Made by a program: the position numbers and the translations under genes. The notes beneath the pieces are model-generated. The model saw nothing but the letters and a program-made list of their open reading frames with translations, did not search any database and was not told where the DNA came from. A DNA stretch of 64,000 bases. Source: an uncultured Verrucomicrobiota bacterium (GTDB lineage Bacteria > Verrucomicrobiota > Kiritimatiellia > RFP12 > UBA3636). Of the stretch, positions 4,149-62,372 are shown piece by piece. Numbering within the stretch: position 1 is the stretch's first letter; each line of letters opens with the position of its first letter. Where the stretch lies: NCBI GenBank assembly GCA_947169825.1, contig CAMVRE010000001.1, positions 16,463 to 80,462 of the forward strand, given 5' to 3'.

Positions 4149-4190
4149 GCCGCAAAGTCTACCACAGGGGCGGCTCGCCCGACAAGGGCG

Positions 4191-5474: not shown

Positions 5475-5591
5475 GGTGTGTCCTTGGCTGGTGTTGTCGC
5501 GGGCGATTTGCCCGACACCATCCATAATCCGCCGGCGCGGATTCTTTCCACGTGGCGTCGGCGAATAGGACCGGATTCCGTCCTTCGTCCG

Positions 5592-7163
5592 TCAGTTTAC
5601 CGCGGGACCGGGCTCAGTCGCGCGGGCGTTCCGCATCGTCACCGCGAGGGGAATCATGTTGTTTCCGACCGGGAAATAGCCAAACATGAATTCCTTTTTC
5701 GGGATATCGGAGCAGGTTCGGTAGTGGGCGTCGACGGCGTCGGAAACTTCGCAGACGGGGTTCGAAAGATCGAGATCCTGCGTCCGCGGATCGTAGAGGA
5801 AGACGGCCTTCGCCCAATAGACGGAATTTCCCGACGCGTCCTTCTTGCGCCCGTGCCACGTGATGGCCAGATCGTCGTAACCGTCATTGTTCAGATCGAC
5901 CGTTTCGATGCCGATTCCCCTTCTCAGGCCCCTGTCCAGATCGTCGTAGACGAAGATCTGCTGAACGCGGAACGGCGCGTCCTCCAGGGAATCGGCCCAC
6001 CGGAGGTGGACTTCGTAGCAGTAGCGCCATCTCGACTTCACGTTCTTGTTCTCCGTCACGATGCGCCACAGCTCGACGTCGAGCTCGCGCCCGTTCAACC
6101 GGACGGTCGCATCAAGCCGGAGGGAGTTGAGGGGGGCGAGCCGGTGGCGGAGATAATACCCGAGGGCGCTCAAAGCGACTAGCCCGGAGACGATCGCGAA
6201 AATGAGACAACGCCAATAGTTTTCCGCTTCAGGGGTTCTTGCGGGGCCGATGATGACCACAATCAGAAGGAGAAGAACCAAAATTATGCCGACTTCTTCA
6301 AAATGGCGCGACCACCGATGGACACGCCGCCCGTCGATGCGAAACAGGAGATTGGTCGCGACCTTGGAGAAATCCGGTTTGTTCTTTTCCCTTTCGGAAT
6401 AGTACGCACCGACGTCTTTCCATTCTTTCCGGGCGGTGTCGGGTTTGCGCGGGTCACGGTGGAAAAGCAGTTCCTTCTGGGTTTCGCGCAGGATCCCGAT
6501 TTCGTATCCGAGCACCTTTTTCCTTTCGCGGATGACAACCGACGAGACGGGAATCAGCTCGTTCATCGGTCCGATATGGGAGACGAGGATGGCGAGAACG
6601 GGGCCCTTGAGCCGAACGCTGTGGCAGAGATGGAAGGAAACGTGGGTCCGGAGCCTATCGAGGGCTTCTTTTCCAAGTTCGTAACGTTGCGCGTCCGAAA
6701 CCTCGAACGCGAGCCGTTCTTCGTCTTTGGTGCCCAACAACTCTTTTTGGACGTAGGCGCAGAAATCCCGGTCTTCGCGTTTCGGATCTTCTTCGCAAAA
6801 CGTCTTGTAGCCGATATCGACGAGATAGAGCTCCTTTTTTTTCTTGTCCTCGCCGACGCCGAGCAGGATGCACCCGCCCCAGGCGTTGGCCATGGAAACC
6901 ATCGCCTCGACCACGTTCCACTTGCACGCATCGCCCGTCGAGTTGTCCCCCTGCTTGGGAAGATAGTGCGCCTTGAACTCGAGGAAGTTCGTTTCCCGGG
7001 TTCCGTTCTCACGGGAGCCGGAAAGCCCCCGAAGCAGCTTGTCGACGTCAGGTACCGGAGGAGGGTCGACGCCCAGGACGGAGCTGGACAGGGAGCCAAA
7101 ATCATCGCACTTGGCGATTGTCTTTCGGGAGAAAAGGCGAAGGAGTAGCTGTTTCATGGCCAT
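5592..7163 (-). CDS. Schlafen-type AlbA_2 domain protein with central TM helices and a C-terminal FG-GAP/VCBS-like segment
   Basis: AlbA_2 signature NFLEFKAHY...ANAWGGCILLGVGEDKK. Hydrophobic stretches IILVLLLLIVVIIG and LIFAIVSGLVALSALGYY. DLNNDGYDDLAITWHG near the C-terminus. GC and codon use are markedly lower than the neighbours. The listed 1130-aa ORF is cut at MAMKQLL because the remainder is antisense to the 7362-8465 gene. Confidence 0.7.
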   Translation of the reverse strand: MAMKQLLLRLFSRKTIAKCDDFGSLSSSVLGVDPPPVPDVDKLLRGLSGSRENGTRETNFLEFKAHYLPKQGDNSTGDACKWNVVEAMVSMANAWGGCILLGVGEDKKKKELYLVDIGYKTFCEEDPKREDRDFCAYVQKELLGTKDEERLAFEVSDAQRYELGKEALDRLRTHVSFHLCHSVRLKGPVLAILVSHIGPMNELIPVSSVVIRERKKVLGYEIGILRETQKELLFHRDPRKPDTARKEWKDVGAYYSEREKNKPDFSKVATNLLFRIDGRRVHRWSRHFEEVGIILVLLLLIVVIIGPARTPEAENYWRCLIFAIVSGLVALSALGYYLRHRLAPLNSLRLDATVRLNGRELDVELWRIVTENKNVKSRWRYCYEVHLRWADSLEDAPFRVQQIFVYDDLDRGLRRGIGIETVDLNNDGYDDLAITWHGRKKDASGNSVYWAKAVFLYDPRTQDLDLSNPVCEVSDAVDAHYRTCSDIPKKEFMFGYFPVGNNMIPLAVTMRNARATEPGPAVN

Positions 7164-7361: not shown

Positions 7362-8465
7362 ATGACCGACAACAACACCAAGAAGACCAACGCCATGGAA
7401 CACAACCCCGTCCATACCGCCATGAAGAACGTGTCCCCGAAGATTCTGCTGCCCATCCTCGTGTCCGTTTTCGCGCTCTGCGCGCTCCCGTTCCTGACGG
7501 GCGCGTCCACCGCGGACGCGTCGGCGGAACCGACGCTTTCGCCCCTCGACGACCTCAGCCGGGAAACCGGGCGCGACGCGGACGCGACGGAAGTCCGAAC
7601 GAAGCAGGCGGACGCCTACCGCGCCCAGGGGGAGTACGACCTGTGCTACCGGATCTACCGGGGATGCGTCGAGAGCGGGCGGATCGACGGCCGCGCGTTC
7701 TACAAGGTCCTGCGCGGCGACGCGAAGGACCTTGCTGCGGCACATCCCGAAAAGAGGATGACGGTGCTCGTCGAAGACGGGAAGAAGAAGCCGGAGGAGT
7801 GGCAGGTTGCCCGGATGCGTCCCGAAGACAAGGCCTTGATTTGGAAAAAGAAGGGCGTGACGCCGAAGAAGGATTGGTTGACGGAAAAGGAACGGACGGC
7901 CCTCGTGGAGGCCGGCACCGCGAAGGGACTCGAGTTCCTGGACGGAAAACCGTCCCTCACGTTGGAGAAATGCCGCCGGATCCTCGCGTGCTACGACCTG
8001 CTGCGCGACCACGTCCAGAATCTGCTCGACGGAACGGAAGAGCGTCTGGTCCGCGAAGCGCCCGGCGACGAAGCGCTCGAATCCCTGCGCCGCGACCTGC
8101 TGGCCCTCAAGAAGGAAATCCGGGTCGCGCGCACGCGGTTCGTCTCCTACACGCTCGTGAGCCCGTTCCTCGCGGAGACGGTCCGGCTGCGCAGGATCGC
8201 CAAGGACAGCTTCCTCCAGATGCTGTTCAACCACCGGGCGAACGCGGGGAAGCGGCTGGACGCCATCTCGATGCTCGCGTTGGCGTGCCACAACGAGATT
8301 CTCATGAGCTGCACGGAGGACGTCCGCATCCAGTTCTGCGACGTCGTGTCCGGCCTGAAGCGGATCTCGCGTCCTGCGGAATGGGAGCACTTCAAGACCG
8401 TGACGACGATGCTCGACAGCTACGACCCCTCGAAGAAGCGCGGGGCCGACGCCTGGTGGGAGTAG
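7362..8465 (+). CDS. Hypothetical secreted/membrane-anchored protein
   Basis: Internal signal-like MKNVSPKILLPILVSVFALCALPFLTGASTADA. The start could be 7362, 7395 or 7422. No known domain. Confidence 0.5.
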   Translation: MTDNNTKKTNAMEHNPVHTAMKNVSPKILLPILVSVFALCALPFLTGASTADASAEPTLSPLDDLSRETGRDADATEVRTKQADAYRAQGEYDLCYRIYRGCVESGRIDGRAFYKVLRGDAKDLAAAHPEKRMTVLVEDGKKKPEEWQVARMRPEDKALIWKKKGVTPKKDWLTEKERTALVEAGTAKGLEFLDGKPSLTLEKCRRILACYDLLRDHVQNLLDGTEERLVREAPGDEALESLRRDLLALKKEIRVARTRFVSYTLVSPFLAETVRLRRIAKDSFLQMLFNHRANAGKRLDAISMLALACHNEILMSCTEDVRIQFCDVVSGLKRISRPAEWEHFKTVTTMLDSYDPSKKRGADAWWE

Positions 8466-8489
8466 CAGGAAGGAAAGGAGAGACAGACG

Positions 8490-9839
8490 ATGAAGAACAA
8501 CGCCATTCGTCCGTTCCGCCTTGCGGCGGCGATCCTTCTTGCGGCGATCGCGCCCGCCGCGATGGCCCATCCTTCGGCCGCGGAACACGCCCGGGATCTG
8601 CGGGCGGTCTTCGCGGGGCTGGAGGAGGGGCCCTTCCGCGAGATCTTCGAAACGGTGAGCGCCGACGTCGACAACGCGCTGGCCAGATCGTTCGAGGCGG
8701 AGATCGGACCGATTCCGGGCGGGCCCGGCAACCATCGCATCCTCGGTCATTCGTGGGCGCTCGGAGATCGCATCCCGAAGGACAAGCTCCGTCTGCTGGA
8801 AAGCGCCCATCCGGGCCGGCGGGCGGACATCGTCCGCTGGTGGAACCGGTTCTCCGAGGCGGAGATCTCGAAGATCGCGGAAAAGACGGGGCTCGCCAGA
8901 CCGCAGGCGAAGGCGCTCGGAAACATCATCTGGCGAATCCATCTGTTCGGCGACCGGACGGTCGACAACCGGGCGGTTGACCACGTCATCCCGACCCGCG
9001 AAAACGCGGAACGGCTGATCCGGGACCTGAACGACCTGTTCCGCCGATCCTGCCCCGACGCCCTGGGCAAGGCCGTGCAGACGATTCGGGACGCGATGCG
9101 TTCCGGGTCAACGGAGGCGGCCCGGGCGACGGCCGCACTCGACGCCTGCGCGAAGGCCCGAATCCCGACCATGCTGGAACAGGGATACGGCAGGCAGCTC
9201 GCCTCGAAGGGCATCGGACGTTCCGCGCAGGCGGCAGCCGCGCTTCCCCGGACGGCCGTCGCCGGCTCCGTTCCGTCCTCCGCCGCGAAACTGATGGCGA
9301 AGGGGAAAGCCTTCGCCGCCAATTCCCCGGAAGGCGCCAAGGCGTGGTCCGCGGCCAAGGAGGGCTTCCGGTCGAAGGGAACCGTACAGGTGCGGCCGGG
9401 ACTCCTGGCGCCGTCCGGACGGCTGCTTACGTCCGTGAAGTCCGGCGCCGCCGCGGGCGCGCTCGTGTTCGCCGCGGACGCCGGCATGGCCTGCTACCGG
9501 TTCTGGCAGGGGGACATCCTCGACGCCGAGTTTGCGGACGGCATCGCGGACGCGGCCCTGAAGGGGGCTGTCGTCGGCGCGGCCGTCGGCGTCGCGGTCC
9601 TGCTGGGCGCGACGCCCCAGGGCTGGGTCGTTCTCGCCGTGGCCACCGCGACGTACATCGTCGTCGACGTCGGAATCCGGATCTGGCGGGAGATCGACGA
9701 ACGGCGGTTCCTCTCCGCGGAAGACCTCGCCGCCTTCGGCATCCGGCCGGATGCGTTTCCGGAGCCGCGCGATACCATTCTTTCGCCGATGGACGACGGG
9801 TTTCTGGAGCCGCGGGACAGTACGCTCGTCTTACCGTGA
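8490..9839 (+). CDS. Hypothetical secreted protein with C-terminal hydrophobic region
   Basis: aggaaggaaaggag lies upstream. Signal peptide MKNNAIRPFRLAAAILLAAIAPAAMA. C-terminal GAVVGAAVGVAVLLGA...VVLAVATATYIVV. Confidence 0.6.
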   Translation: MKNNAIRPFRLAAAILLAAIAPAAMAHPSAAEHARDLRAVFAGLEEGPFREIFETVSADVDNALARSFEAEIGPIPGGPGNHRILGHSWALGDRIPKDKLRLLESAHPGRRADIVRWWNRFSEAEISKIAEKTGLARPQAKALGNIIWRIHLFGDRTVDNRAVDHVIPTRENAERLIRDLNDLFRRSCPDALGKAVQTIRDAMRSGSTEAARATAALDACAKARIPTMLEQGYGRQLASKGIGRSAQAAAALPRTAVAGSVPSSAAKLMAKGKAFAANSPEGAKAWSAAKEGFRSKGTVQVRPGLLAPSGRLLTSVKSGAAAGALVFAADAGMACYRFWQGDILDAEFADGIADAALKGAVVGAAVGVAVLLGATPQGWVVLAVATATYIVVDVGIRIWREIDERRFLSAEDLAAFGIRPDAFPEPRDTILSPMDDGFLEPRDSTLVLP

Positions 9840-9860
9840 CGGGGAGAAGCCGACAATGAC

Positions 9861-10148
9861 ATGAGGAAGCTTCTGGACCATCTCAAGGCGCACGAGGGCA
9901 CGGCGGATCCGTGGATCCTCGTCTGGGACAACCGCGGAACGTTTCCGCGGAAGGTTGGCGAACTCATACGCATCTGCAATCTTGCGACGGGCGCCTCGCA
10001 GCTCTTCGGCATCCCCGTCCGCACGTCGACCTACGTCGACTACCGCGGCGAGGTCGTCCTCGAAACCCGCGTCGAGCGCGCCGAGCTTCCGGAGCTCGTC
10101 GCCCGCCTCGAGTCCCGCCTCCGCCGCCCGCTCCGCCGCGTTTCGTGA
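9861..10148 (+). CDS. Small conserved protein (95 aa); partner gene of the AlbA_2 module, paralog of 14852-15142
   Basis: ggggagaag lies upstream. It is about 80% identical at both protein and DNA level to 14852-15142 (DPWILVWDNRxTFPRKVGxxIRICNLATGAS..FGIPVRTSTxVDYRGEVVLETRVERAELPEL). It ends 38 nt before the AlbA_2 gene. Confidence 0.65.
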   Translation: MRKLLDHLKAHEGTADPWILVWDNRGTFPRKVGELIRICNLATGASQLFGIPVRTSTYVDYRGEVVLETRVERAELPELVARLESRLRRPLRRVS

Positions 10149-15179: not shown

Positions 15180-18100
15180 ATGCAAGCCACTTCCACCGCA
15201 CGGTCTCCTCTGGTTCCCGTCAACGGATACGATTTTGCCCGATCGGTTCTCGACCAGGAACCGGATCGTGGCGTCGAGATACTTCTTCAGGCGGCAGGCG
15301 AAAACGAATCGGACTGGCTCGAAAAGAAAGCCGCGGTCTACCGGTCGGAAAGCAAGGACGAACGCTTCCGGAAAGCGTTGGAAAACTGCCCCCCCGAACA
15401 GAGGAAACGCAGGAAAGATCTCCTGAATCTCGAATTGCTCGCTGAAATCGCCAAGGCCATCGTCGCCATCCACAACTCCCGAGGTGGCGTTTTGTTCGTC
15501 GGCATCGACGACCAAACCAATGAACCCGTTTCCTTCGAAAACAACGACGGCGGAGAAATCTGGAGGACGAACGGAAAGGGCGACTATGCCCTCAAGGCGG
15601 TTTGGGGCCGGCTTGCCCGGGAGAACGGAGAGTTTCGTTTCGACCACGAGACATTGATCGTTCCGGTGGAAGCCGTCGGCGTGGTTCCAAAATGGTGTCG
15701 CTACAAGAACGCGGATGTCCTCGCCCTGCTCATCCCCCCGCTCGCACCCGAAAAGAATCCGCTTGAAGTCACGCACGTCGAAAACAATTCTCCGTGGAGA
15801 TCCATTCCGAAGAGAGCACCAGGAGATGTCGGTCAAGTCAAGAAGGAAATGCGAAACGATGCGTGGATCGGTTCCGCCGCACAATTGGCCGATTTCCACC
15901 ACGCCCGCCAAGAACGTTTTCTAAATCAAACCGATCTTGCTTCCAAACTCAAGATACTTGGTCTTTCCGTTCCCAGCTCCTTTGTTTCCCAAATTCCGAA
16001 GCCCCGGCAGGAAATCACCTCGACCGTCGACCGTCCGCGCGCAGCCAACTTCGTCGGACGCGAAAAGGAACTCGAAGAGTTGCACGAACTGCTCGCGGAC
16101 GGACGAATCCCCGTCGTGACCGGTCCAGGTGGGACGGGCAAGTCCGAGTTGGTCCTCCAGTACGCCGCACGGAACAAGGCCGACTACCCCGGAGGTTTGT
16201 TCCAGATTGACATGGAAGACGTCACCGATTGGAATCAGACCTTCCTATCAATGCTGGAGAAGCCCGGCGTTCGGGATGTTCTCGGACTTCCGGTGAACAA
16301 CGAAGCCGAGATAGAATGTGAAGCCGAAAAGGAACCAAGTGTCAATAGTGCGGAATTGGCAGCCGACGGAACTGGCATGCCATGCGACAATTGCTTGAGA
16401 GAGAGCATCGCCGGAGACAAGAAATCCGTTCCAGCGGCCTTGTCCGCCCGGGTCGGCAGGGCAGGTCCCATTTTGATGATCCTTGACAACGTCGATCCTC
16501 CAGCCTGCAAAACGCTTTTCAAGGAAACCGTCCTCTCCAAACTGGGTCTTCCGTCCGACGTGAAAATCGTCGCCACGGCACGGGCGTCAGATCTTACCTT
16601 TCCGGCCAGCGGCGTCTGCAAGGAATTCCGACTTTCCGACTTGTTGCCGGATGTAGCCGTCCGGTTTTTGCTGGCAAATCACCCGGAGGCTTCCGAAGAC
16701 GAACGGAAGGCGGCGGAAAACATCGCCCGGATGCTTGATTATCGCATCCTCTATCTGAAGGCCGTTCCCTCGCTGTTGGAGGATGACGATTCCGATTTTG
16801 CCGGGTCGTGGAGGGCACTCGAAGCGGGCCTGCGCGACAATCTCGCGGATGTCGTCGCCGCGGGAATGGAAGACGACAGGGGCCGGACGCCGTCCGCCCT
16901 TTGGCAACTGACGCAAAAGGCTTTTGCCGCCAATCGTCCAAAAGGAGACAGGTGGATTCTCCTGGCGCGGATCGCCTCGTTCTTTTCTCCTGACCTCGGC
17001 ATCCGGAAAGCCGCGCTTTCCGCATTGTGGAAAAGCATCTCGGCGCCAGATGGCGATCTGGACATCGCCTTTGATCAGGCGATCAACAAACTTCTCAAGC
17101 ATGGTATCCTCGAGGACCGAGACGGCGAATACTATATGCATCGTCTCACATGCGCGGCCATTCGAGCCGCTTCAAGAGAGGAAGCGCCGAACATCGAGGA
17201 ATCTGTCGGTTTGTCATTGGCGGGAACTGGTCGCTCGGAGAGTCGGGACTGGGTATCGCTCTCCGGCAGTATTCCGGCCCTGCGCCATGTCCCGGAGGCT
17301 CTGCTCGACGGAAAGACGTGCGTTGACATCCTGTGCGGCAACCGTCAATTCGCCGACCTTTGCCCGTGGACAAAACTCGACTATTCTGATTGGAGGAAAC
17401 TTCTTGCCTTTCATCCACAGTTTATCGATCAATTGCAACAATCCGCTGATAATGGCAGCGCTGGTGCACAAATCGCTCTTGGGATTTGTTACTATTACGG
17501 TCGCGGCGTGAACCAGAATTACGAAGAAGCCGTAAAATGGTTCCGCAAGGCTGCCGAGCAGGAAAACGCTGCTGCGTATTCGAATCTCGGCGTATGCTAC
17601 GAAAAGGGCCGCGGCGTGGAACGGAACGCCGAAGAGGCCGCGAAATGGTACCGCAAAGCCGCCAATCAGGAAAACGCTACTGCGCAGACCAATCTCGGCA
17701 ATTGCTACTACAACGGTTGCGGCGTGGAACAGAGTTCTGAGGAAGCCGTGAAGTGGTACCTCAAGGCCGCCGAGAAGGGAAACGCTGATGCGCAGTTCAA
17801 TCTCGGCGTATGCTATGGCAATGGCCACGGCGTGAAGCAGAACGCCGAGGAAGCTGTGAGGTGGTTCCGCCAGGCCGCCAATCAGGAAAACGCTACTGCG
17901 CAGTTCAATCTCGGTTGCTGCTACTACCACGGTCGTGGTGTGGAACAGAACTACGAAGAAGCCGTGAGGTGGTGGCGCAGGGCCGCCGATCAAGGAAAGG
18001 GTGCAGCGCAATTTAATCTTGGCGTGTGCTATGGCAAGGGCCACGGCGTGGATCGGAGCGCCGAGGAAGCCGTGAAGTGGTACCGTAAGGCTGCCGAGCA

Positions 18101-19067
18101 GGAAGACGCCGCTGCGCAGGCTAGGCTCGGCTTGTGCTACGAGGAGGGCGAAGGCGTGGAACGGAACGCCGAGGAAGCCGTAAAATGGTACCGCAAGGCC
18201 GCCGAGCAGGGCAACGCTTCTGCACAGACAAAACTCGGTTATTGCAAGAATGACGGCCGTGGCATAGAACGAAGCGTCGAAGATGCGGTGAAGTGGTGGC
18301 AAAAAGCGGCAGAACGGGGGTACGCCCCGGCTCAATGGGAACTCGGTAGTTGCTTTGCCCTCGGAAAAGGTGTCGCGCGGAATGAGGAAGAGGCCGTAAA
18401 CTGGTGGCGTAAGGCGGCGGACCAAGGAAACCCCTGGAGACAAATCCGTTTGGGCCGGGTTCTTTTGTTCGGGAACGGCGTTGAAAAGAACGAGGCGGAG
18501 GCGTTCCGTTGGTTCCAGCGCGCGGCGGAACAAAAAGACGATTATGCGTTCGCCTGGCTCGGCTACTGTTTCGCGTCAGGAACCGGGACGCCCAAGGATA
18601 CACAAAAATCTGAATCGCTCTTTTTGAAGATCAGTCAACCCGCTCTTGGATTCAACGAGATTGCATGGTGTTTGTTCAAAGCAGGACGGTTTTCGGATGC
18701 CTTGCCGTTCGCGGAAAGGGCAGTTGCCGCGTTGCGGACAATCGAAGACTTCCCGATGCAGAAACGAATTATAATCCTCGATACACTTGCTGCCATTTTT
18801 CACCATTTGAACCGGGAAGAGGAAACGAAAGACGTTTGCTCCGAAATCCTGTCTCTGTTCCCAGAAAACGACGATTCAAAACACCACGAGGAAGCTCTCG
18901 TCCGGCTCGGGCGGGCCTGTCAACGCCTTGGCGACAAATCTGGCGCGGTCGATGCGTTCCAGAAGGCACTAACCATTGTGGAACGGCATGACGGCAAGCA
19001 CGCCGAATACGGAGAGTCCGCAGATTCCTTGCGCGCGTTGCTGGCCGAATTGTCGGAACGCGGTTGA
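15180..19067 (+). CDS. AlbA_2 N-terminal domain fused to STAND (NB-ARC-like) NTPase and Sel1/TPR repeat array; Avs-like architecture
   Basis: NGYDFARSV...ESDWLEKKAA...AIHNSRGGVLFVGIDD. Walker A PVVTGPGGTGKSELV and Walker B ILMILDNVD. At least 12 Sel1-type repeats (AQxxLGxCYxxGxGVxxNxEEAVKWYRKAAEQ). C-terminal TPR-like segment. Confidence 0.85.
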   Translation: MQATSTARSPLVPVNGYDFARSVLDQEPDRGVEILLQAAGENESDWLEKKAAVYRSESKDERFRKALENCPPEQRKRRKDLLNLELLAEIAKAIVAIHNSRGGVLFVGIDDQTNEPVSFENNDGGEIWRTNGKGDYALKAVWGRLARENGEFRFDHETLIVPVEAVGVVPKWCRYKNADVLALLIPPLAPEKNPLEVTHVENNSPWRSIPKRAPGDVGQVKKEMRNDAWIGSAAQLADFHHARQERFLNQTDLASKLKILGLSVPSSFVSQIPKPRQEITSTVDRPRAANFVGREKELEELHELLADGRIPVVTGPGGTGKSELVLQYAARNKADYPGGLFQIDMEDVTDWNQTFLSMLEKPGVRDVLGLPVNNEAEIECEAEKEPSVNSAELAADGTGMPCDNCLRESIAGDKKSVPAALSARVGRAGPILMILDNVDPPACKTLFKETVLSKLGLPSDVKIVATARASDLTFPASGVCKEFRLSDLLPDVAVRFLLANHPEASEDERKAAENIARMLDYRILYLKAVPSLLEDDDSDFAGSWRALEAGLRDNLADVVAAGMEDDRGRTPSALWQLTQKAFAANRPKGDRWILLARIASFFSPDLGIRKAALSALWKSISAPDGDLDIAFDQAINKLLKHGILEDRDGEYYMHRLTCAAIRAASREEAPNIEESVGLSLAGTGRSESRDWVSLSGSIPALRHVPEALLDGKTCVDILCGNRQFADLCPWTKLDYSDWRKLLAFHPQFIDQLQQSADNGSAGAQIALGICYYYGRGVNQNYEEAVKWFRKAAEQENAAAYSNLGVCYEKGRGVERNAEEAAKWYRKAANQENATAQTNLGNCYYNGCGVEQSSEEAVKWYLKAAEKGNADAQFNLGVCYGNGHGVKQNAEEAVRWFRQAANQENATAQFNLGCCYYHGRGVEQNYEEAVRWWRRAADQGKGAAQFNLGVCYGKGHGVDRSAEEAVKWYRKAAEQEDAAAQARLGLCYEEGEGVERNAEEAVKWYRKAAEQGNASAQTKLGYCKNDGRGIERSVEDAVKWWQKAAERGYAPAQWELGSCFALGKGVARNEEEAVNWWRKAADQGNPWRQIRLGRVLLFGNGVEKNEAEAFRWFQRAAEQKDDYAFAWLGYCFASGTGTPKDTQKSESLFLKISQPALGFNEIAWCLFKAGRFSDALPFAERAVAALRTIEDFPMQKRIIILDTLAAIFHHLNREEETKDVCSEILSLFPENDDSKHHEEALVRLGRACQRLGDKSGAVDAFQKALTIVERHDGKHAEYGESADSLRALLAELSERG

Positions 19068-36926: not shown

Positions 36927-39830
36927 CTACTTCCCGACGGGAGCGACGGCGATTGCAGAGAGGACGCCGGGGCGGGAGGCGTCGTAGGAGACGCGGAAGG
37001 AGACGGGCGAGGTGCCGTCGTAGGCGAAGTCGGCGGTCGCGCCGTCGGCAGAGATCGAGAGACCCTCGACGCCGTCGGCGCCCGCGAGGCGAAACGGCGA
37101 GGGCGCGGCGGGGGAGGGCGAGGGGGAGCCGAGCGGGTCGGAGAGGATGGCGGCGGCGATGTCGGGCTTCTCCTCCAGGATCGTCGCGCGGTAGCGTCCG
37201 GCGGGGAGCGCAAGCGGGAGCCACGGGCCCTCGACGGCGGTGCACGGCGGGTGCGGCCCGGGCGCGAAGGCGAGATCGTCCGGGGCGGGGACGAAGCCGC
37301 CGGTCTTCTCGTCGGGGATGCGCGCAAGCGTTGTCGAACCGAACTCGTGGTAGAGGTCGACGGCGGGAAGGCGGAGCGCGCCGTCGGAGTCCGGAGCGGG
37401 CAGGCCACCGTGCGCGGGATCGCGCGCGTAGGCGACGTAGGAGATGCGCGCGTCGCCCGGGGTGGAGAGGTGCGTCCAGAGGTTGGAGGAGGGGTCGAGG
37501 GCGGGGAGGAAGGCGAGGCGCCAGTCCGGGGCCGGGGCCCCGGGCGCGGAACCGGCTTCGCGGCTTGCGCGGAAGAGGTTGGTGGAGGAGTGGAGCGAGC
37601 CGTCGGCGTCCGTGAAGGAGGAGACGAGGACGAGGTCCTTGCCGGCCTCGGCGCGGACGAGCCAGCCATAGCCCTCGCGGTGGATTTCGGCGAAGGAGCG
37701 GACCTTCGTGGCGGCGTTCGCCTGGGGCGGGCGCACGCCCCAGTGGCGGGTGGGCGGCTCAAGCATCGAATGCTGAATGCTGAATGCTGAATGCTGAATG
37801 GAGGAAGCTTGTTCTGTCGTCGTGCATTCTGCATTCTGCATTCTGCATTCAGCATTGCCTTCGCGGTCGCAGACCGCGAAGGCCCAGGCGCCGTCGGCGC
37901 GGGCGAGGAGACGGAGCCTCGGGTTGGCGAGGTGGCGGCGGAGGGTGGCGCCGAAGGGGAAGAGGGAGACCTTGGCGGGGAAGGCGTCCTCGTGGAGGAT
38001 CACGTGCGTGACGCCCGTCTTGCGGAGGGCGGCGTATTGGTCGTCGGTGAAGTCGCCCTCGGTCATCGTCTCGAAGCGACGGAAGACGCGCTCGACGTAG
38101 GCGGGCTCCGTGACGGCGGCGTAGCCGTTGAGCATCCGCAGCCCGGCGCGCATGGCGTGGTATTCGTAGATCGAGCTGTAGGAGGAGTCGCCGGGCCAGA
38201 TCGGCAGGACGAGCGCGCGCGGCACGAGCCCGCGCGCCTCGGCGTCGGAAACGGCGGCCGCGTAGGCGGCGTTGGGGCCGGGAAGGAGGCATACGCCCGC
38301 GCGCATGCCGCGCGAGGCGGAGAGGAGGACGGCGAGCACCAGCGCCGCGGCGGGAAGCGCGCGGAGGAGGGGACGGCGGCGCGGCGCCCGGCGGAGCGCC
38401 TCCGCCGCGGAGGCCGAGGCGCGTTCGCGCTGGCCGGAGGCGAGGCGCGAGAGCGCGAGCGGCGCGGCGGCGCGGCGCAGGAGCGGCGCGAGGGAGGCGA
38501 GGGAAGCCCACGCGAGCGCGAGGAACGCCGCGTAGAGCGTCGGGAGGAGGCAGAGGACCTTGAGCGGCTGGCGCACCAGGCGGAAGGGCGGGACGAGCCG
38601 GCGGAGGGCGCGCAGGAGGAGGGCGTCCCCGGGGCCGTTCGTCCCGAGCGCGAGGAAGAAGGCGGCGACGATCGCCGCGCCGAGGAGGAGCCCGGCGAGC
38701 GCGGCGCGGAGCGCGGCGGTGTCGCGCGGGGCGGCGGACTCGGCGCGGGTCGAGAAGCGCGGGTCGAAGACGATCGCCGGCGAGCGGAACGGCGCGGTGC
38801 GGCGCCGGCGCAGGAGGCGCCAGGCCAGGACCAGGGCGGCCGCGAGCAGCGCGAGGCCGGCGAGCGAGAGCAGCGCCGCGATCGCCCAGCCCTGGTGGAG
38901 CTGCTCGGGCGAGTGGCTGAAGTAGGCCGGGTCGAAGAAGGCGTGCCAGTCGGGCGAATGGCGCGCGAGATCCTGCATCGAACGGCCGCCGGCGGCGTCG
39001 GTCGAGGCGTAGGCGCGCTTGGCGGCCCGGCCGAGCGCGGCGCAGACCGCGCCGCCGAGCAGGATCGGCGAGAGGGCGCGGACGAGCCGAAGGAAGCGGC
39101 GGCGCGAGGCGAAGGGGTTCGCGGGCGAGCGCAGGAGCGCGACGAGGCCCCAGAGCGGGAGGGCGAGCACGGCGAAGAGGAAGCAGTGCAGGTCGGCCGC
39201 GTAGCAGCAGAGCACGAGCGCGCCCGCGAGGACGCCGCCGCGGAGGCGCCGGTCGCGCACGGCGATGTCGACGCCGAGCGCGACGCCCGGGACGAGCCCC
39301 ATGCCGAATCCGGTGGGGGAGCCGCCGGCCAGGACGACCCAGCGGTAGGGGACGCACGTCGCGAGCGCGGCGCAGGCGAGCGCCGCGCCGGGGCCGGCGC
39401 CGCAGCGGCGGGCGAGGGCGTGGCAGAACGCGAGCCCGAGGAGGATCGAGAGCCACTGGGCGAGGTTCCAGGCGAAGGCGTCGGACGCCCCGGCGGCGCG
39501 CGCGAGGGAGTAAGGGAGGGCGAACGGAAAGTAGCACAGGTCCGGGCGCGGCGGGCGGGCCTCGTCGGACGTATTGAACTCCCAGAGGTTGCGGAACCAG
39601 GGGAGGCGGCCGCGGAGGTAGGAGTCGAAGAGGTCGAAATGGTAGAGCAGCTGCAGGTGGTCCCCCTGCACGAGCGTGCGCGCGGGGGCGTCCCCGGCGT
39701 AGCAGGTGTAGGCGATGCCGCGGGCGACGTGCGCGGGGAGCGGCCGGAGGAACGCGGCCCAGAGCGAGAGCGCGAGCGCGGCGAGCGCCAGGGCGGCGCG
39801 GAGGCGGGGATGTCGGCGCAGGGGCGTCAT
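36927..39830 (-). CDS. Large polytopic membrane protein with C-terminal soluble domain; carries an in-frame palindromic (GAATGCT)n element
   Basis: At least 12 hydrophobic helices in the first ~640 aa. ATG at 39830 (MTPLRRHP). The ORF has no stop across the 37764-37859 hairpin, which encodes ...[30 protein letters not shown]... The C-terminal ~270 aa look like genuine coding sequence. Confidence 0.5.
37764..37859. repeat. Imperfect palindrome: (GAATGCT)x4.7, 22-nt spacer, (TGCATTC)x4.7
   Basis: Read directly: gaatgctgaatgctgaatgctgaatgctgaatgg...tgcattctgcattctgcattctgcattcagcatt. Confidence 0.9.
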
Positions 39831-39875
39831 GGCGGCGGATGATACCACGGCGTCCCCGCGGCGGGCAAGGGGCGC

Positions 39876-39904: not shown

Positions 39905-40018
39905 CCGCGCCCTCAGCACATCAAGAGCCGGGGTTCTTCCGCCCCGCCCCAACCGAGCGATCGCGCCACGGTGGATCCGGACAAGCCGGGATGCGCCCTG
40001 AACCGAAAGGGAAAAACC

Positions 40019-41203
40019 ATGCAACGCTACGTATTCACCTCCGAGGCCGTCTCGGAGGGCCACCCTGACAAGGTCGCCGACCAGATCAGCGACGCCATCC
40101 TCGACGCCGCGCTGGCGGTCGACCCCGCCGCGCACGTCGCGGCCGAGACGTTCGTCGGGCCGCGCTTCTGCGCGAACCTCGGCGAGGTCTCGGAGCACAT
40201 TCTGCCGAGGCTCGATCCCGAGACGATCGCGCGCGGCGTCGTCCGCGACATCGGCTACGACCGCCCCGAGGAGGGCTTCGACTGGAGGACCTTCGACTAC
40301 CAGAACCGCCTTGGCGCGCAGTCGCCCGACATCGCGCAGGGCGTCGACCGCGGCTCCGCCGACGAGCAGGGCGCGGGCGACCAGGGGATGATGTTCGGCT
40401 ACGCCGTGCGCGAGACGCCGGAGCTCATGCCCGCGCCGATCGCCTGGGCGCACCGCCTGATGCGCCGCTTCACGGACGAGCGCAGGTCCGGCCGCATCCC
40501 GTGGCTGCGCCCCGACGCGAAGAGCCAGGTGAGCGTCGTCTACGAGGACGGCCGCCCGGTCCGGATCGACGCGATCGTGCTCTCGCACCAGACGACGGAC
40601 GAACCGGACATCGACCGCGACATCCGCCCGGCGATCGAGGCCGTGGTGCGCGACGAGCTCGCCGGCACCGGGATGCTGGTTCCCGCCACGCGGTTCCACG
40701 TCAACCCGACCGGGCGCTTCGTGACGGGCGGGCCCGCCGGCGACTCCGGCCTCACCGGGCGCAAGATCGTCGTGGACACCTACGGCGGCGCGTGCCCGCA
40801 CGGCGGCGGCGCCTTCTCGGGCAAGGACCCGAGCAAGGTCGACCGCTCCGCGGCCTACTACGCGCGCTACGCGGCGAAGAACCTCGTCGCCGCCGGCGCG
40901 GCGGATCGCTGCGAGATCCAGGTGAGCTACGCGATCGGCGTGGCGGCGCCGACGAGCGTTCGCGTGCAGTTCTTCGGCACGGAGAAGGGCGGCGCCACGG
41001 AGGCGAAGGCCGTCGCGATGCTCGAGAGCGGCGAGGTCTTCGACTTCCGTCCCGGCCGTCTCGTCGCCGCGCTCGGGCTCCTCGCGCCGAGCGGCTGGAC
41101 CTACCGCGACACCGCGAGCGGCGGGCACTTCGGCCGCGCGGCGTTCCCGTGGGAGCGCCTCGACCGGGTCGACGCCGTCCGCGCCGCCCTCGGCCTGCGC
41201 TAG
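40019..41203 (+). CDS. metK: S-adenosylmethionine synthetase
   Basis: [73 protein letters not shown]. Confidence 0.92.
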
Positions 41204-44300: not shown

Positions 44301-44756
44301 GAGCCGCTCGCCCAGGTCTACCAGCGCAGCATCCAGACGCTGATGCAGATGAAGACCTACTCCGACGGCTCGTCGGTCTGGCCCGACGTCCAGTACGAGT
44401 GCGGCCACTACCTCAAGCTCTTCAAGGACATCGCCGACCCGAAGGAGGTCCTCAAGGTTCGCAGCGCCCTCAACGAGGCCACGCGCGAGATCAACGCCGC
44501 CGGCGAGGAAATGCCGCCCTCCGCCCTGATCGAGCTCATGGGCGACGCGCCCGACGTCGAGGCCATCCTTGCCACGCTCCCGGAGGACGCCTACCTCCCC
44601 AAGGAGGAGTCCGAGGAGGCCCCCGCGGAGGAGTCCTCCGAAGAGGTCGCCGACCCCGCCGAAGCGCCGGCCGAAGCGACCGAGGCCGCCGAGGCGGCCC
44701 CCGCCGAAGAGGCGGCGGAGGAAGCCCCCGCGGACGAGCCCGCCGCCGAGGAGTGA
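41331..44756 (+). CDS. Large secreted TPR-like repeat protein with acidic C-terminal tail
   Basis: Signal peptide MPTTFRSSLRPLLAAAALAALVPVGARA. Many TPR-like helical pairs. C-terminal EEAPAEESSEEVADPAEAPAEATEAAEAAPAEEAAEEAPADEPAAEE. Confidence 0.7.
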   Translation: MPTTFRSSLRPLLAAAALAALVPVGARAQAAVSDQDAKILSQEMKYVDALNRAGFPDYADLVLRDIQAKYPAAKAKLKVKMLEQVLQLGKFDEAQAIIDKEPNQDAPETWAMKLTMADYLFARGRYDEAFATYNALFKKYGSAPPKEIVEFYVNSYYKFAQMLKFQKKDKEAADALEKLLAVAGLPADMKRPVLFDHAQTLVKVASEAGKGGAGGYITRANKSIEALLWTQDVWFGRSVALMAHIKVIEGKVDEAQKLVEDYMPMLVQLEEALIEAGKEDGEDYLGLSPIPEVRYLMGVMYQEEADKLVTQSKSEAGKKKTDLEDKAGELYGLALRELVNVYIKYPSYAWAIEAMSRHEQINKALDELGFEVADSTTPAQRAQVAKKQFESAHMFYHQNRFEEAIKQFETVLKSFPEVVPESIKALVVLAQAAVEYGESQEEEEAQQYWQLYSGAVAGYIADRFARSTKEGMTLAGDQLRSLQSFYATHNLPELSQQARSDFFRLYPEHPAAANTVMQEAERLYKDGSYEEAMPLYRLLMENYTKNAVSWPAQRRLADCYGKTGRPEEELNIRSNYLARVEHKRNPGNDLITAQYSYLKALRTLRANALREATLAYDEARRGEAKPAEEGKDPVEEAVVALKAANDGVRGMLNEYTKLIRRLTDKEQRAKFEVSAKQKDLNDQILQSALFDHAFCLSSLNQPEAQLPKYKQLAIKDYERILELFPKAQGVPIVLLQLGTLYSTIRTDDEAEAEANTKKASEYFDRLSADYPESEQAKNALYLQAKALMELGYRPEAIKKYGEMISTPGGKYTPLQLAKAAEELVAAKAWETAEKGFQAALAGAKPDDAALRNMIEMGLMQILVAQKKYTEAVPRLKKFLEDTPRFHRTADVLELLRTACVEAAVAEPDKKKRSLLFKDANDASAKLKAYRRGDRAALELQLQHGDIMEKQYKAAVDFKADDAEDILRSSANYYQRIITTFGANPKNAEILEPLAQVYQRSIQTLMQMKTYSDGSSVWPDVQYECGHYLKLFKDIADPKEVLKVRSALNEATREINAAGEEMPPSALIELMGDAPDVEAILATLPEDAYLPKEESEEAPAEESSEEVADPAEAPAEATEAAEAAPAEEAAEEAPADEPAAEE

Positions 44757-44789
44757 ATGCCGAATGCTGAATGCTGAATGCTGAATTCC
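44755..44789. repeat. (GAATGCY)x5 heptamer array overlapping stop codon of 41331-44756
   Basis: gaatgccgaatgctgaatgctgaatgctgaattcc. Confidence 0.9.
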
Positions 44790-44866
44790 TACGCACAAAA
44801 CTCCAACCGCCCATCTCCAATCTCGCTCCCGTAACCCTTCAACCTTTCAACCCAAACTCCCCACCC

Positions 44867-45676
44867 ATGAAAAAGACACCACTCGTCCTCCTCGCCGCGC
44901 TGCTTCTCGGCTGCGCCACGTCCGTCCGGGCCGCCGACGTCAAGGCCAAGGTCCAGCTCTCCAACGGCGAGACGCACCAGGGCACGATCCGCTGGCTTCC
45001 CGCCGACAAGAAGTACATGTTCGGCATGAAGCAGCCGAACGGCACGGTCGCCGAACGCGCCCTTCCGGCCGACGCCGTCGTCAGGCTCCAGGTCGAGACC
45101 CCGCAGGAGTGGGGCAGGCTCCGCCAGCAGGCGCAGCAGTCGCCCGACGCCGCGATCTCCGGCCTCCAGGCCCTCGCCGAGCGCTACCGCCGCCTCCAGT
45201 GGGACGGCGAGGCCGGCGCCCTGATCGCCCAGATCTACCTCAAGAAGAACAACGCCAAGGGTGCCGTCGACGCCTGCCGCAAGATCGTCCAGGGCAACGA
45301 CCGCGCCGCGTGGGACTCCGCGATGGCCCCGTGGTACTGGAAGGCGCTCATCGAGTCCAACCAGACCGGCTCCCTGCCCGGTCTGCTGGAGAAGGGCGCC
45401 ACCTCCGCCGACCGCAACGTCGCCGCCCAGGCCTGCCTCAAGCGCGGCGACATGCTCGACTCCCAGAACGACGCCAAGAACGCCCTGAAGGACGGCTACC
45501 TGCGCGTCGTGCTCCTCTTCCAGGACGTCGCCGAGGCCCGCGCCGAGGCCATCTACAAGGCCGCTCAGATGTTCGACAAGCTCCACCAGTCCGCCTACGC
45601 CGAGAAGATGCGCAAGCTCCTCCTCGACCAGTATCGCAACTCCCCCTGGACCAAGCGGCTCTCCTCCGGCGACTAG
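44867..45676 (+). CDS. Lipoprotein, hypothetical
   Basis: MKKTPLVLLAALLLGCATS (lipobox LLGC). Its leader is shared with the exbB leader (cccttcaacctttcaacc). Confidence 0.65.
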   Translation: MKKTPLVLLAALLLGCATSVRAADVKAKVQLSNGETHQGTIRWLPADKKYMFGMKQPNGTVAERALPADAVVRLQVETPQEWGRLRQQAQQSPDAAISGLQALAERYRRLQWDGEAGALIAQIYLKKNNAKGAVDACRKIVQGNDRAAWDSAMAPWYWKALIESNQTGSLPGLLEKGATSADRNVAAQACLKRGDMLDSQNDAKNALKDGYLRVVLLFQDVAEARAEAIYKAAQMFDKLHQSAYAEKMRKLLLDQYRNSPWTKRLSSGD

Positions 45677-45678
45677 GT

Positions 45679-45759
45679 CAATGCTGAATGCTGAATGCCG
45701 AATGCCGAATGACAGACCGACTTTAAACTTTAAACTTTAAACCCTTCAACCTTTCAACC
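45679..45759. repeat. Composite repeat: (GAATGCY)x5 + (ACTTTAA)x3 + cccttcaacctttcaacc leader box
   Basis: caatgctgaatgctgaatgccgaatgccgaatgac...actttaaactttaaactttaa acccttcaacctttcaacc. The leader box is also present at 44834-44852. Confidence 0.85.
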
Positions 45760-45776
45760 AAACACCCCCCAAAACC

Positions 45777-46541
45777 ATGAAAAAGTCCCTCCTCGCCACC
45801 CTCGCCGCCGCCGCCCTGCTGGTCGCGGCCGCTCCGGTCACCACCTACGCCCAGGACGATTTCGCGCCCGCGCCGCAGGCCCAGCAGGCGCCCGCGCAGC
45901 CCAAGCACTCCACGTTCTACGACGTGCTCTTCGGCTCGGGCTGGCTCGGCACGCTCCTCTGGCTCGCGCTGTTCGGGTGCCTCGGCTACTACATCTACCT
46001 GGCGATCGACTGCGGCATCCTCGTGCGCCCCTCCAAGATCATGCCGGACGCGCTCGTCAACAACGTCAAGGAGGCCATGAAGGAGGGCGACGTCGTGAAG
46101 GCGCTGCAGTTCTGCGAGAACGAGCCCACCCCGATGTCCAACATCCTCTCCGCCGGCTTCATCCACGTGGAGGAGGGCTTCGACGTCATCTCCTCCGCCG
46201 TCGACGCCGCGGCCGACCTCGAGATCGAGCGCATCATGCAGCACCTGGCGTGGATCTCCGTCTGCGCCAACATCGCCCCGCAGCTCGGCCTGCTCGGAAC
46301 GGTCCAAGGCATGATCATGGCGTTCGGCAACTTGGGCACCGGCTCGCCGAACGTCGGCCTCCTCGCGACGAACATCTCGCAGGCGCTCTACACGACGGCC
46401 GGCGGTCTGACGACCTCCATCCCCGCCGTGTGCACCTACTACTTCTACCGCAACCGCGCCAACCGCATCATCCTCCAGATGACCGCCACCACGATGGAGC
46501 TCATCAAGGACCTGCGCAACGTCGAGGTCGTCGCCGAATAA
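45777..46541 (+). CDS. exbB: MotA/TolQ/ExbB proton-channel family protein
   Basis: Three TM helices. ...APQLGLLGTVQGMIMAFGNLG...ALYTTAGGLTTSIPAV. Confidence 0.85.
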   Translation: MKKSLLATLAAAALLVAAAPVTTYAQDDFAPAPQAQQAPAQPKHSTFYDVLFGSGWLGTLLWLALFGCLGYYIYLAIDCGILVRPSKIMPDALVNNVKEAMKEGDVVKALQFCENEPTPMSNILSAGFIHVEEGFDVISSAVDAAADLEIERIMQHLAWISVCANIAPQLGLLGTVQGMIMAFGNLGTGSPNVGLLATNISQALYTTAGGLTTSIPAVCTYYFYRNRANRIILQMTATTMELIKDLRNVEVVAE

Positions 46542-57926: not shown

Positions 57927-58331
57927 CTACCGAGCCGGGACGACGCGAATCGCGCGCACGACCGCGCGTGCAGGATCTCCTCCGAGGAACGCGAGGATCT
58001 TCGGCAGCAGCAGGCGCGGGGCCGATCGCTTCAGCTCGGCATACCACACGGACCCTCGCACCTGCACGACCAGTTCGCCGTTCTCGATGCCGCCCGGCGT
58101 CGCGCGCCGCGCGACGTCCGGCCCGACGATCTCCGCCCACGACTCGGCGATGCGCAGCGCGGCGGGATCCGCTTCGGGGACGCCCAGCGCCTTCACCACG
58201 CGCGTCGCGGCGTCTCCCGCCGGTTCCGCGTCCTTGAACGGCGGCGGCGGGAAGGCGTCCGGCACGCGCAGGAACTCGCGCCGCACGCGCCACGAGCCGG
58301 GCGTGTAGTCCTTCGGGAGGGTTCGTCTCAT
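57927..58331 (-). CDS. DUF721-like small protein, hypothetical
   Basis: GELVVQVRGSVWYAELKRSAPRLLLPKILAFLG resembles the DUF721 core. Tentative. Confidence 0.45.
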   Translation of the reverse strand: MRRTLPKDYTPGSWRVRREFLRVPDAFPPPPFKDAEPAGDAATRVVKALGVPEADPAALRIAESWAEIVGPDVARRATPGGIENGELVVQVRGSVWYAELKRSAPRLLLPKILAFLGGDPARAVVRAIRVVPAR

Positions 58332-58332
58332 G

Positions 58333-58490
58333 GTCGTGATGGTCGTGATGGTCGCGATGGTCTCGATAGTCGCGATGGTCTCGATAGTCGCGATGGTCTC
58401 GATAGTCGCGATGGTCTCGATAGTCGTGATGGTCGGACCATCCAGACCATCGGACCATCCAGACCATCAGACCATCAGACCAGATTCTCC
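58333..58490. repeat. Tandem repeats: (GATGGTCGTGAT)x2 + (GATGGTCTCGATAGTCGC)x4 + (GGACCATCNA)x4
   Basis: Read directly. Occupies the whole spacer between the DUF721-like start and the purM stop. Confidence 0.9.
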
Positions 58491-61655: not shown

Positions 61656-61793
61656 GACCGTGTGACCGTGTAACCGTGTGACCGTGCGACCGTGTGACCG
61701 TGTAACCGTGTGACCGTGTAACCGTGTGACCGTGCGACCGTGTGACCGTGCGACCGTGCGACCGTGTGACCGTGCGACCGTGTGACCGTGCGA
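61656..61793. repeat. (GACCGTGY)x17 octamer tandem array forming the entire tadE-like/tadG-like intergenic spacer
   Basis: gaccgtgtgaccgtgtaaccgtgtgaccgtgcgaccgtg... abuts the tadE-like stop (61794) and ends 2 nt before the tadG-like ATG (61653). Confidence 0.9.
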
Positions 61794-62372
61794 CTATTCG
61801 AGATAGAGCCCCGCGTGCTCCCCCTGGGTCGCCGTCGCCTCCATCGCGACGCGCGGGACGCCCTCGCCATCGAGCGGCGCCCACGGGACGGCGAAGCGCG
61901 CGAACGGCATCCAGAGCGGCGCGTCGTGCCGGACCGTGAGGTCGAGCGTGCCGTTGCCGAAGAGCGAGCCGGATTCGCGGACGGAGAGCGTCCCCTTCTC
62001 CCATTCCTCGTAGTTCAGGACCCAGTCCGCGCGCTCGTGGTTCTCGGCGGAGAGGTAGTCGGGGATGCGGGCGCGCTCGAACGCGGCCGGCGAGCCGTCC
62101 GCCGGCGTCCAGCCGAGATCCTCCGCGAGGAGCTTCCCCGAGACGGGGATCGCCGCGACGCGCGCCGCCTTCGTCGCCATCCAGGAGTTGAATCCGACGG
62201 CGCGTGCGCGCGCGGCGCGCGACGCCGCGTGGTGCAGGATCTCGCGCCCGCCGAGCGCGAGCGCGGCCTGCAGGAATCCGAAGAGCAGGACGCAGAGCAC
62301 CAGGAGCGCGAGCAGCGTCTCGAGATAGGCCTGTCCGGCGCGGCGCGGCGGCGGGACGGCGCGGCGAATCAT
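61794..62372 (-). CDS. TadE-like pilus assembly protein
   Basis: N-terminal RRAGQAYLETLLALLVLCVLLFGFLQAALAL (TadE motif). Confidence 0.6.
   Translation of the reverse strand: MIRRAVPPPRRAGQAYLETLLALLVLCVLLFGFLQAALALGGREILHHAASRAARARAVGFNSWMATKAARVAAIPVSGKLLAEDLGWTPADGSPAAFERARIPDYLSAENHERADWVLNYEEWEKGTLSVRESGSLFGNGTLDLTVRHDAPLWMPFARFAVPWAPLDGEGVPRVAMEATATQGEHAGLYLE

Follow-up and report, generated by a model that had tools for sequence, protein, structure and literature searches.

How does a long hairpin built from a seven-nucleotide repeat come to be translated in the middle of a membrane protein? The question is raised by a gene of an uncultured Verrucomicrobiota bacterium (Kiritimatiellia; RFP12; UBA3636), which lies on the minus strand at positions 36927..39830 of a 64,000-nucleotide (nt) stretch of DNA (assembly GCA_947169825.1, contig CAMVRE010000001.1, positions 16,463 to 80,462), hereafter the window. 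An initial annotation had noted a (GAATGCT)n imperfect palindrome, read without a stop codon inside a 968-amino-acid (aa) open reading frame (ORF), and had compared it with in-frame insertions such as the Rickettsia palindromic elements (RPEs) or with a fused two-gene unit. We favor the explanation, to which we assign a probability of roughly 0.6, that hairpin-forming inverted (GAATGCW)n arrays are a tolerated passenger in a disordered interdomain linker, drawn from a dispersed, slippage-prone repertoire of repeats that fills unconstrained DNA.

The palindrome occupies 89 nt (37768-37856) and is made up of two inverted heptamer runs, called on the plus strand by Tandem Repeats Finder as (GAATGCT)x4.7 at 37768-37800 and (TGCATTC)x4.9 at 37823-37856. 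Its arms are 37 nt each and 86% complementary, with 14 nt between them. From the tandem-repeat calls and a map of stop codons, the sense (minus) strand reads as a 5' arm of AATGCT(GAATGCA)4 (37823..37856), a loop containing ...CGACGACAGAACAAGCTTCCTC... (37801..37822), and a 3' arm of (ATTCAGC)4.7, the complement of (GAATGCT)n, which is stop-free in every sense frame (37768..37800). The RNA structure prediction that the initial annotation had proposed gave a stable fold for the sense strand (-57.9 kcal/mol, z = -6.4 versus shuffles). A search for heptamer dimers, allowing at most two mismatches, returned 16 matches in the window compared to 0.93 expected, a number reached by 0 of 100 shuffles. 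All 16 were confined to three sites, the palindrome (37768-37857) and two sites at 44755-44788 and 45679-45712, and the 64-kb window holds one palindrome.

On the sense strand, the 5' side of the palindrome is adjoined by a GC hairpin with a perfect 12-bp stem and a loop of 3 nt, GCCTTCGCGGTC-gca-GACCGCGAAGGC (37857..37883, minus strand), which the initial annotation had overlooked. Its left arm encodes the conserved residues AFAV and its right arm D-R-E-G. The GC hairpin occurs once in the window, which rules out a dispersed repeat of the repetitive extragenic palindromic (REP) type, and among orthologs it is limited to alleles of the palindrome class (window, L002, L005/6, L007/8/16, and L017). 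Covariation analysis of this hairpin found one compensatory pair, which was non-significant (50 of 500 shuffles did equally well). No Rfam family matched the hairpins; the hits were to generic models of long-hairpin microRNA precursors and stayed below threshold. Scans for terminators and promoters found nothing at the element and no terminator-like site at 37750-37890 on either strand; the sequence 3' of both hairpins is not T-rich, while intrinsic terminators combine a GC-rich hairpin with a T/U run. Directly after the palindrome is an in-frame ATG (37762..37764, minus strand; MLEPPTRHW), as first reported. This codon is GTG in L002 and there is no start codon in the (TCGTCAC)n allele; judging from this sequence comparison, the ATG is probably incidental.

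The host gene is a single ORF encoding a membrane glycosyltransferase of GT-C fold with a C-terminal all-beta module. Homologs begin at MTPLRR, corresponding to the ATG at 39830 and a protein of 968 aa (973 aa from an upstream GTG at 39848). Pfam and NCBIfam have no family for the protein, which was therefore classed by structure, using an AlphaFold model built on the homolog alignment (mean predicted local distance difference test score (pLDDT) 78, predicted template modeling score (pTM) 0.78). The N-terminal module (37872..39830, minus strand; residues ~7-659 in 973-aa numbering) comprises a polytopic GT-C domain and a periplasmic alpha/beta domain, and in the model it ends in the strand WAFAV at residues 654-659. 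Foldseek searches against the PDB matched it to AftD (6wby, E = 5.5e-9) and AglB (7e9s, E = 3.3e-6), as well as EmbB, STT3, ArnT, and AftA; the modeled fold thus places it in the GT-C glycosyltransferase superfamily, with AftD, Emb, STT3/PglB, and ArnT. The C-terminal module (36930..37758, minus strand) has strands from residue 701 and is of jelly-roll or carbohydrate-binding module (CBM)-like type, with weak fold matches to beta-domains of the Cry-toxin and CBM kind. Between the last strand of the first module and the first strand of the second lies the insert, residues 663-694 with pLDDT values of ~30-45, and its encoded ~30-aa peptide is predicted to be disordered. The model and the Foldseek matches thus agree with the initial description of a polytopic membrane region joined by the hairpin to a soluble domain.

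Seventy database proteins match the host protein, mostly from metagenome-assembled genomes of Kiritimatiellae from rumen and gut. Homologs of 840-950 aa are single polypeptides spanning both halves, down to ~32% identity, and the suggestion of a fused two-gene unit was abandoned on this evidence. Two more distantly related homologs consisting of the N-terminal module only (P0056 and P0044) stop directly after WA[FY]A[VL], with unrelated genes next to them, and many genome hits cover residues ~1-660 only. The C-terminal module is rare, with 18 hits among 1.84 billion representatives, nearly all of them fused in the host family. Because the homologs, the model, and the N-only proteins agree, we conclude that the element sits exactly on the domain boundary of a single polypeptide. 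Two further observations concern this family. P0056 lies at the end of a glycosyltransferase operon (L010 1-6782; Glyphos_transf, IspD, 2-Hacid_dh, GT2, GT8), a gene context that would suit an involvement of the GT-C family in making cell-surface glycopolymers. In the ortholog P0013, another heptamer array, (CTTTACC)3.6, is translated within a loop of the N-terminal module that is poorly conserved (L009 1206-1230); this array is missing from other orthologs.

The junction DNA of 21 full-length orthologs revealed a series of alternative alleles. The GC hairpin with the heptamer palindrome is present in the window and in L002, with 3 differences in 153 nt, while L005 and L006 carry a decayed palindrome whose loop is still recognizable, and L007, L008, L016, and L017 have the GC hairpin followed by a short non-repetitive linker. 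At the same position, L012, L013, L001, L003, and L004 carry (TCGTCAC)4-6, L093 carries (TCGTCAC)7.6, which is three units longer and still in frame, L009 carries (GAACCCGA)5.5, and L014 carries (CGAACCTG)3.4. All of these alleles are in frame, and 7- or 8-nt units from at least three independent families occupy the junction in nine non-redundant orthologs. L012 belongs to the same species as the window and is 95-100% identical in DNA along the gene, yet it has (TCGTCAC)4.6 at the junction. The junction is a hypervariable domain boundary, with different repeat families in close relatives, including members of one species. Conservation of the peptide segment among orthologs, the outcome that would have made it an ancient linker, was not found in those compared. 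Since the orthologs do not conserve the segment and L012 carries another repeat, the proposed in-frame insertion stands.

L002 represents an 88%-identical lineage. Its palindrome block is 98% identical to that of the window, while the adjacent gene sequence is ~91-93% identical and the C-terminal module 67-89%, a pattern suggestive of exchange by recombination or of a polymorphism that has long persisted. The palindrome peptide was also found in four further independent assemblies (including P0079, P0080, and P0082), and the palindrome is therefore not an assembly artefact. By inspection of the filled (window, L002), hairpin-only (L007, L016), and (TCGTCAC)n alleles, linker sequence has been replaced, and this comparison showed no target-site duplication flanking the palindrome of the sort that marks a miniature inverted-repeat transposable element (MITE). 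Of ~35 full-length sequences inspected at the junction, 21 of them loci seen as DNA and the rest further homologs and cluster members seen as protein, none was frameshifted. When slippage of one or two units was simulated, some shifts reached a stop within 5-37 codons, and early termination was inconsistent, so that the simulation weighs neither for nor against a switch. A candidate frameshift variant, P0081 on L092, was rejected on inspection. Here, the C-module ORF (241 aa; L092 1-560) is joined, inside an (ATTCAGC)n array, to another locus, the spacer of a divergent upstream gene with (GGTTGGGT)n repeats. This join would be either a repeat-mediated rearrangement or a chimera of the short-k-mer Logan assembly.

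The same repeat lies in frame in an unrelated protein. Contig L152, which is Kiritimatiellae-like with a GC content of 72%, encodes a 1076-aa protein with DAO+Fer2_BFD, Pyr_redox_2, and DUF1667 modules, and a heptamer palindrome is in frame at each of its two junctions. We considered whether modules that are normally separate had been fused by the palindromes and rejected this, as fused homologs of 910-1080 aa are old and widespread; for the same reason, the palindromes must have colonized existing linkers. In relatives with 85-93% identity, the two junctions contain the palindrome peptide, 'RHSSLVTRHS' or 'TRHSSPVTRHSS', repeats with a period of 8 aa, 'ENLRTCEPAN', or a P/S-rich linker, and L214 has (ACTCGTC)5 at a junction of the L152 type, confirmed in DNA. 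The window element and that of L152 junction 1 are both 89 nt long and identical at 74 of 89 positions (83%) without gaps. Their 23-nt loops, taken slightly wider than 37801..37822, agree at 12 of 23 positions (p = 0.007 by shuffling). In most palindromes the loops are different, and most copies share the heptamer arms alone. As an aside on L214, its dnaK (3844-5762) and leuS (7501-9992) genes are each annotated as a pair of ORFs with a 4-nt overlap. An effect of the repeats was rejected, as neither split is at a tandem repeat; the true frame of leuS reads through the split and dnaK is broken by a short deletion of non-triplet length, so that both are probably assembly indels, as far as the sequence allows a judgment.

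The minus-strand ORF passes through the palindrome without a stop, and the GC content at third codon positions is ~0.95 in the same frame on both sides, falling only across the element; repeat calls, the ORF itself, and homolog starts thus all bear out the in-frame location first described. Because 7 mod 3 = 1, a run of GAATGCT yields TGA in all three frames. The window's sense arm, (GAATGCA)4, contains no TGA, as the T-to-A variant unit removes the stops, and one out-of-frame TGA is left in the arm. Unlike this translated arm, the intergenic copies are composed of GAATGCT or GAATGCC units. All translated copies have lengths (in nt) divisible by 3, and the TGAs that the canonical unit would place in frame are gone from them. 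In L152, the altered units are solely those whose TGA would be in frame (TGC-ACA, TGC-AGG, TGC-AGA), which, read from the sequence, is a clear sign of selection for read-through.

We scanned metagenomes for (GAATGCH)3 and recovered at least 120 contigs ranging from 39% to 72% GC. Among the matches listed, most arrays had no long spanning ORF, and five soil and other contigs had perfect (GAATGCA)n-loop-(TGCATTC)n hairpins with unrelated loops; single-arm arrays are the common form. Single arrays also lie in frame inside bona fide ValRS, AroA, NifS-like, PheS, MiaB-like, and RsmB/F proteins on contigs of 44-61% GC, some within domains and some between them. One of these, the AroA (5-enolpyruvylshikimate-3-phosphate synthase) gene of a 50%-GC contig (L147 2676-4007), has two in-frame heptamer-derived inserts ~90 residues apart, one per orientation, 'SMQNAEGGMQN' and 'SSFRILHSAFHTLHS'. 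Database matches to the translated repeat were mostly tiny, domain-less, spurious ORFs, that is, non-coding arrays, and included Burkholderia, Moorena, Treponema, Bacteroidetes, and Thermoanaerobaculia; as these swamped the peptide search and left long proteins unranked, it is incomplete as a census. In a full-text search of the literature, the heptamer strings turned up only in unrelated primers and sequences.

Within the window, the initial annotation had placed the same heptamer arrays between genes at 44755 and 45679. Both were confirmed, and both are single-armed. In the first, (GAATGCY)4.7 on the plus strand (44754..44786), the first unit supplies the TGA stop of the upstream gene (TGA, 44754). 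The second, (GAATGCY)4.6 on the plus strand (45680..45711), lies just past a TAG stop (45675-45677), and (ACTTTAA)3.3 and (CTTTCAAC)3.1 extend from it to the next ATG. In the syntenic spacers of a 93%-identical relative, L001, there are ~7 units compared to 4.7 in the window, and 3 compared to 4. Array copy number thus differs between strains. Other families occur in such spacers too. One spacer of L114 has (GAATGCT)4 followed directly by (TCACTCG)4, and an L001 spacer upstream of an ATG contains a run of (GAACCNNN) 8-mers resembling the L009 and L014 linkers. The (TCGTCAC)n repeat has no occurrence in the window.

Additional repeats and features were seen in the window. Between two minus-strand genes, the spacer at 61656-61794 is nearly all 17.4 copies of an 8-mer (GACCGTGT and variants), extending from just past the stop of one gene to just before the ATG of the next. 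The spacer at 58325-58482 has an 18/9-mer array (~6-12 copies) followed by (GACCATCA)5.6, an 8-mer that contains TGA on the sense (minus) strand, and the first of these TGAs ends the upstream ORF. At 44833-44867 and 45720-45796, immediately before start codons, G-poor, A/C-rich 7- and 8-mer repeats, (ACTTTAA)3.3, (CTTTCAAC)3.1, and (AACCCTTC)2.6, are present with no Shine-Dalgarno-like motif. A SAM-I/IV riboswitch (39913-40026, plus strand; 45.4 bits, above the gathering score) is located directly upstream of an S-adenosylmethionine synthetase gene that is divergent from the glycosyltransferase gene. At 17486-18238, a coding tandem repeat with a 108/216-nt period (~7 copies, 73-77% identical) could encode a repeat protein of the Sel1/TPR kind, judged by periodicity alone.

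If the hairpin is a tolerated passenger in an interdomain linker, its source would be a repertoire of a few 7- and 8-nt families, (GAATGCW)n, (TCGTCAC)n, and (GAACCNNN)n, in this clade of rumen Kiritimatiellae, which would fill two kinds of unconstrained DNA, intergenic spacers and interdomain linkers. Replication slippage would resize the arrays, homologous recombination would carry the linker cassette between lineages, and a copying process, perhaps ectopic recombination or a MITE-like mechanism, may bring tracts to new loci. We infer such a process because three linkers and a number of spacers all draw on the same three specific units. The insert itself would have no required function beyond that of a spacer. 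Of the earlier description of the element as mobile or expandable, the second term is supported directly by the copy-number differences with L001; mobility is suggested by the same families at unrelated loci.

Several considerations weigh against this explanation. No insertion event, target-site duplication, or transposase was seen in the 64-kb window and the short contigs, and the metagenome scan covered (GAATGCH)3 arrays alone. The loop likeness comes from one locus pair, and its p value becomes ~0.05 when ~7 comparisons are allowed for. Neutrality would follow from variability and from disorder that is itself predicted, and in a surface-glycan enzyme, a strong mRNA hairpin together with non-triplet repeats could serve regulation in a way invisible to assemblies.

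Two alternatives concern how the repeats arrive at their loci. The palindrome may have originated locally, by slippage of a seed heptamer and an inverted duplication through template switching beside a GC hairpin already in place, in which case recurrence elsewhere would reflect sequence-biased mutation with no copying. Consistent with this, copy numbers vary locally, arrays mostly have a single arm, the loops of most palindromes are unalike, and the adjoining perfect hairpin could promote template switching; heptanucleotides are also reported, on the basis of earlier work, as the most abundant class of long simple-sequence repeat in many bacteria and are ascribed there to polymerase slippage (PMC4679880). 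However, although ~16,000 heptamers and still more 8-mers are possible, three different linkers and a number of spacers in this clade are occupied by the same three units. In addition, the window copy resembles L152 junction 1 in length and loop, and the window allele is nearer to a more distant lineage than its flanks are. We regard a purely local origin as unlikely. A bolder proposal, which we hold to be doubtful, is that (GAATGCW)n arrays and hairpins are an undescribed, horizontally spreading, insertion-competent 'microsatellite MITE', seeding disordered linkers and loop inserts across phyla, alternating in this clade with two other families as linker cassettes, and maybe acting as a slippage switch for the C-terminal module.

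The remaining alternatives concern what the repeat does to the gene. As a contingency (phase-variation) locus, one-unit slippage would switch off the carbohydrate-binding-like C-terminal module and leave a functional glycosyltransferase made of the N-terminal module only. Surface-glycan enzymes of the GT-C type are typical products of phase-variable genes, and 7- or 8-nt units from at least three independent families at one junction, copy-number differences between strains, natural N-only homologs, and simulated shifts that in some cases stop within 5-37 codons could all be accommodated by switching. Nevertheless, the ~35 full-length genes and proteins are all in frame, copy-number differences are multiples of three units or are compensated, the tracts are short (4-7 units), and the shifted frames have no consistent early termination; moreover, the same repeats lie in linkers of a cytoplasmic oxidoreductase, where switching makes little sense, and in the sole 'split' case, L092, the sequence joins a different locus and no frameshift is involved. 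Phase variation is therefore improbable. It is more doubtful still that the structure itself is functional, with the hairpin pausing ribosomes between domains or serving as a processing site for separate expression of the C-terminal module from the following ATG. The fold is very stable (z = -6.4), an ATG or GTG stands right after the element in the window and L002, and the L152 palindromes are also exactly at module boundaries, but the alternative allele within the species has neither hairpin nor start codon, the L005/6 copy is decayed, there is no Rfam family or terminator-like tail, and covariation of the adjacent GC hairpin is non-significant. We give almost no credence to the idea that the single ORF is a misreading of two neighboring genes or of a faulty assembly. 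Two genes would be suggested by the ATG that follows the hairpin and by the separate 241-aa C-module gene called on the L092 Logan contig; against them are single-polypeptide homologs to ~32% identity, one coding frame on both sides, a confident two-module model, and an L092 array that joins a different locus, as fits repeat-mediated rearrangement or a short-k-mer chimera, while recurrence of the insert in several independent assemblies argues against an artefact.

Non-triplet microsatellites in bacterial genes are usually taken to be switches for phase variation, and most known examples of translated palindromes come from Rickettsia. In the present gene, a hairpin of a 7-nt microsatellite is translated as a linker and is polymorphic within a species, and the same few families are interchangeable fillers of spacers and linkers in at least two unrelated proteins. 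The main value of these data lies in that pattern, in which linkers and spacers draw on one repeat repertoire with fast turnover; if general, it would be a cheap bacterial route to making and remodeling disordered linkers. It would then also call for caution in annotation, as such repeats break short-k-mer assemblies and generate spurious small ORFs.

Compared with known systems, the element resembles RPEs in being a short palindrome that forms a hairpin and codes for nothing on its own, in lying in frame at permissive sites within unrelated protein genes, where it yields a recurring peptide (here NAEC.M.NAEC...), and in having copies outside genes as well. The resemblance proposed initially thus holds for behavior. 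The hairpin is stable (37-nt arms, 86% complementary; z = -6.4), and the peptide recurs in frame in the window ORF, at the two L152 junctions, and as single arrays in other proteins. RPEs are ~150 bp long and fall into defined families that have a conserved consensus, and a Rickettsia genome contains dozens of copies (PMC10969869). In contrast, the arms here are tandem 7-nt microsatellites of variable copy number, the loops are mostly unrelated, only one locus pair has similarity over the whole element, and the host is a member of the Kiritimatiellae. With its microsatellite arms and its different host, the element falls outside the RPE family.

The tandem repeats of Borgs occur both between genes and in ORFs and evolve fast; the units within ORFs are all divisible by three and form intrinsically disordered segments, often in membrane or extracellular proteins (PMC9879509). 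Our repeats share the fast evolution, the presence in both spacers and ORFs, and the (here predicted) disordered protein segments, but their units are 7 or 8 nt, so only array lengths divisible by three survive and slippage of a single unit is a frameshift. Simple-sequence contingency loci are the phase-variable genes of Neisseria, Haemophilus, and Campylobacter. As in those loci, a non-triplet tandem repeat of strain-variable copy number lies in the ORF of a surface-glycan enzyme; unlike them, no out-of-frame variants were seen among ~35 genes and proteins, the tracts are short, and the same repeats lie in linkers of a cytoplasmic enzyme. In line with heptanucleotide variable-number tandem repeats, the arrays contain at least three head-to-tail units (4.7 and 4.9 in the arms, 4.7 and 4.6 in the intergenic copies), are polymorphic in copy number (the L001 spacers; 4 to 7.6 units in the linker (TCGTCAC) array), and are predominantly non-coding in location.

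The TAACTGA direct repeats are found in Beggiatoaceae, Cyanobacteria, and Bacteroidetes, where they are mostly intergenic (MacGregor 2015, PMC4679880). In forward orientation, they place a stop in each of the three frames and may overlap the stop of the upstream gene or provide it, while the few ORF-internal copies are in the reverse, stop-free orientation at protein peripheries; they are scattered across phyla with no known transfer mechanism (PMC4679880). A 7-nt unit, mostly intergenic location, forward stops in all frames, overlap with upstream stops, rare copies in ORFs, and scattered phylogeny are common to both. The question posed by TAACTGA, how identical short repeats reach many loci and phyla, applies here too. 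The present repeats differ in having GAATGCW as their unit and in being paired as inverted arrays in a long hairpin, with one inverted case described for TAACTGA (PMC4679880); their forward arm is translated as well, after mutation of the in-frame TGAs, and they act as interchangeable alleles of interdomain linkers. By construction, the element is a bacterial heptanucleotide simple-sequence repeat, and TAACTGA is the closest described case.

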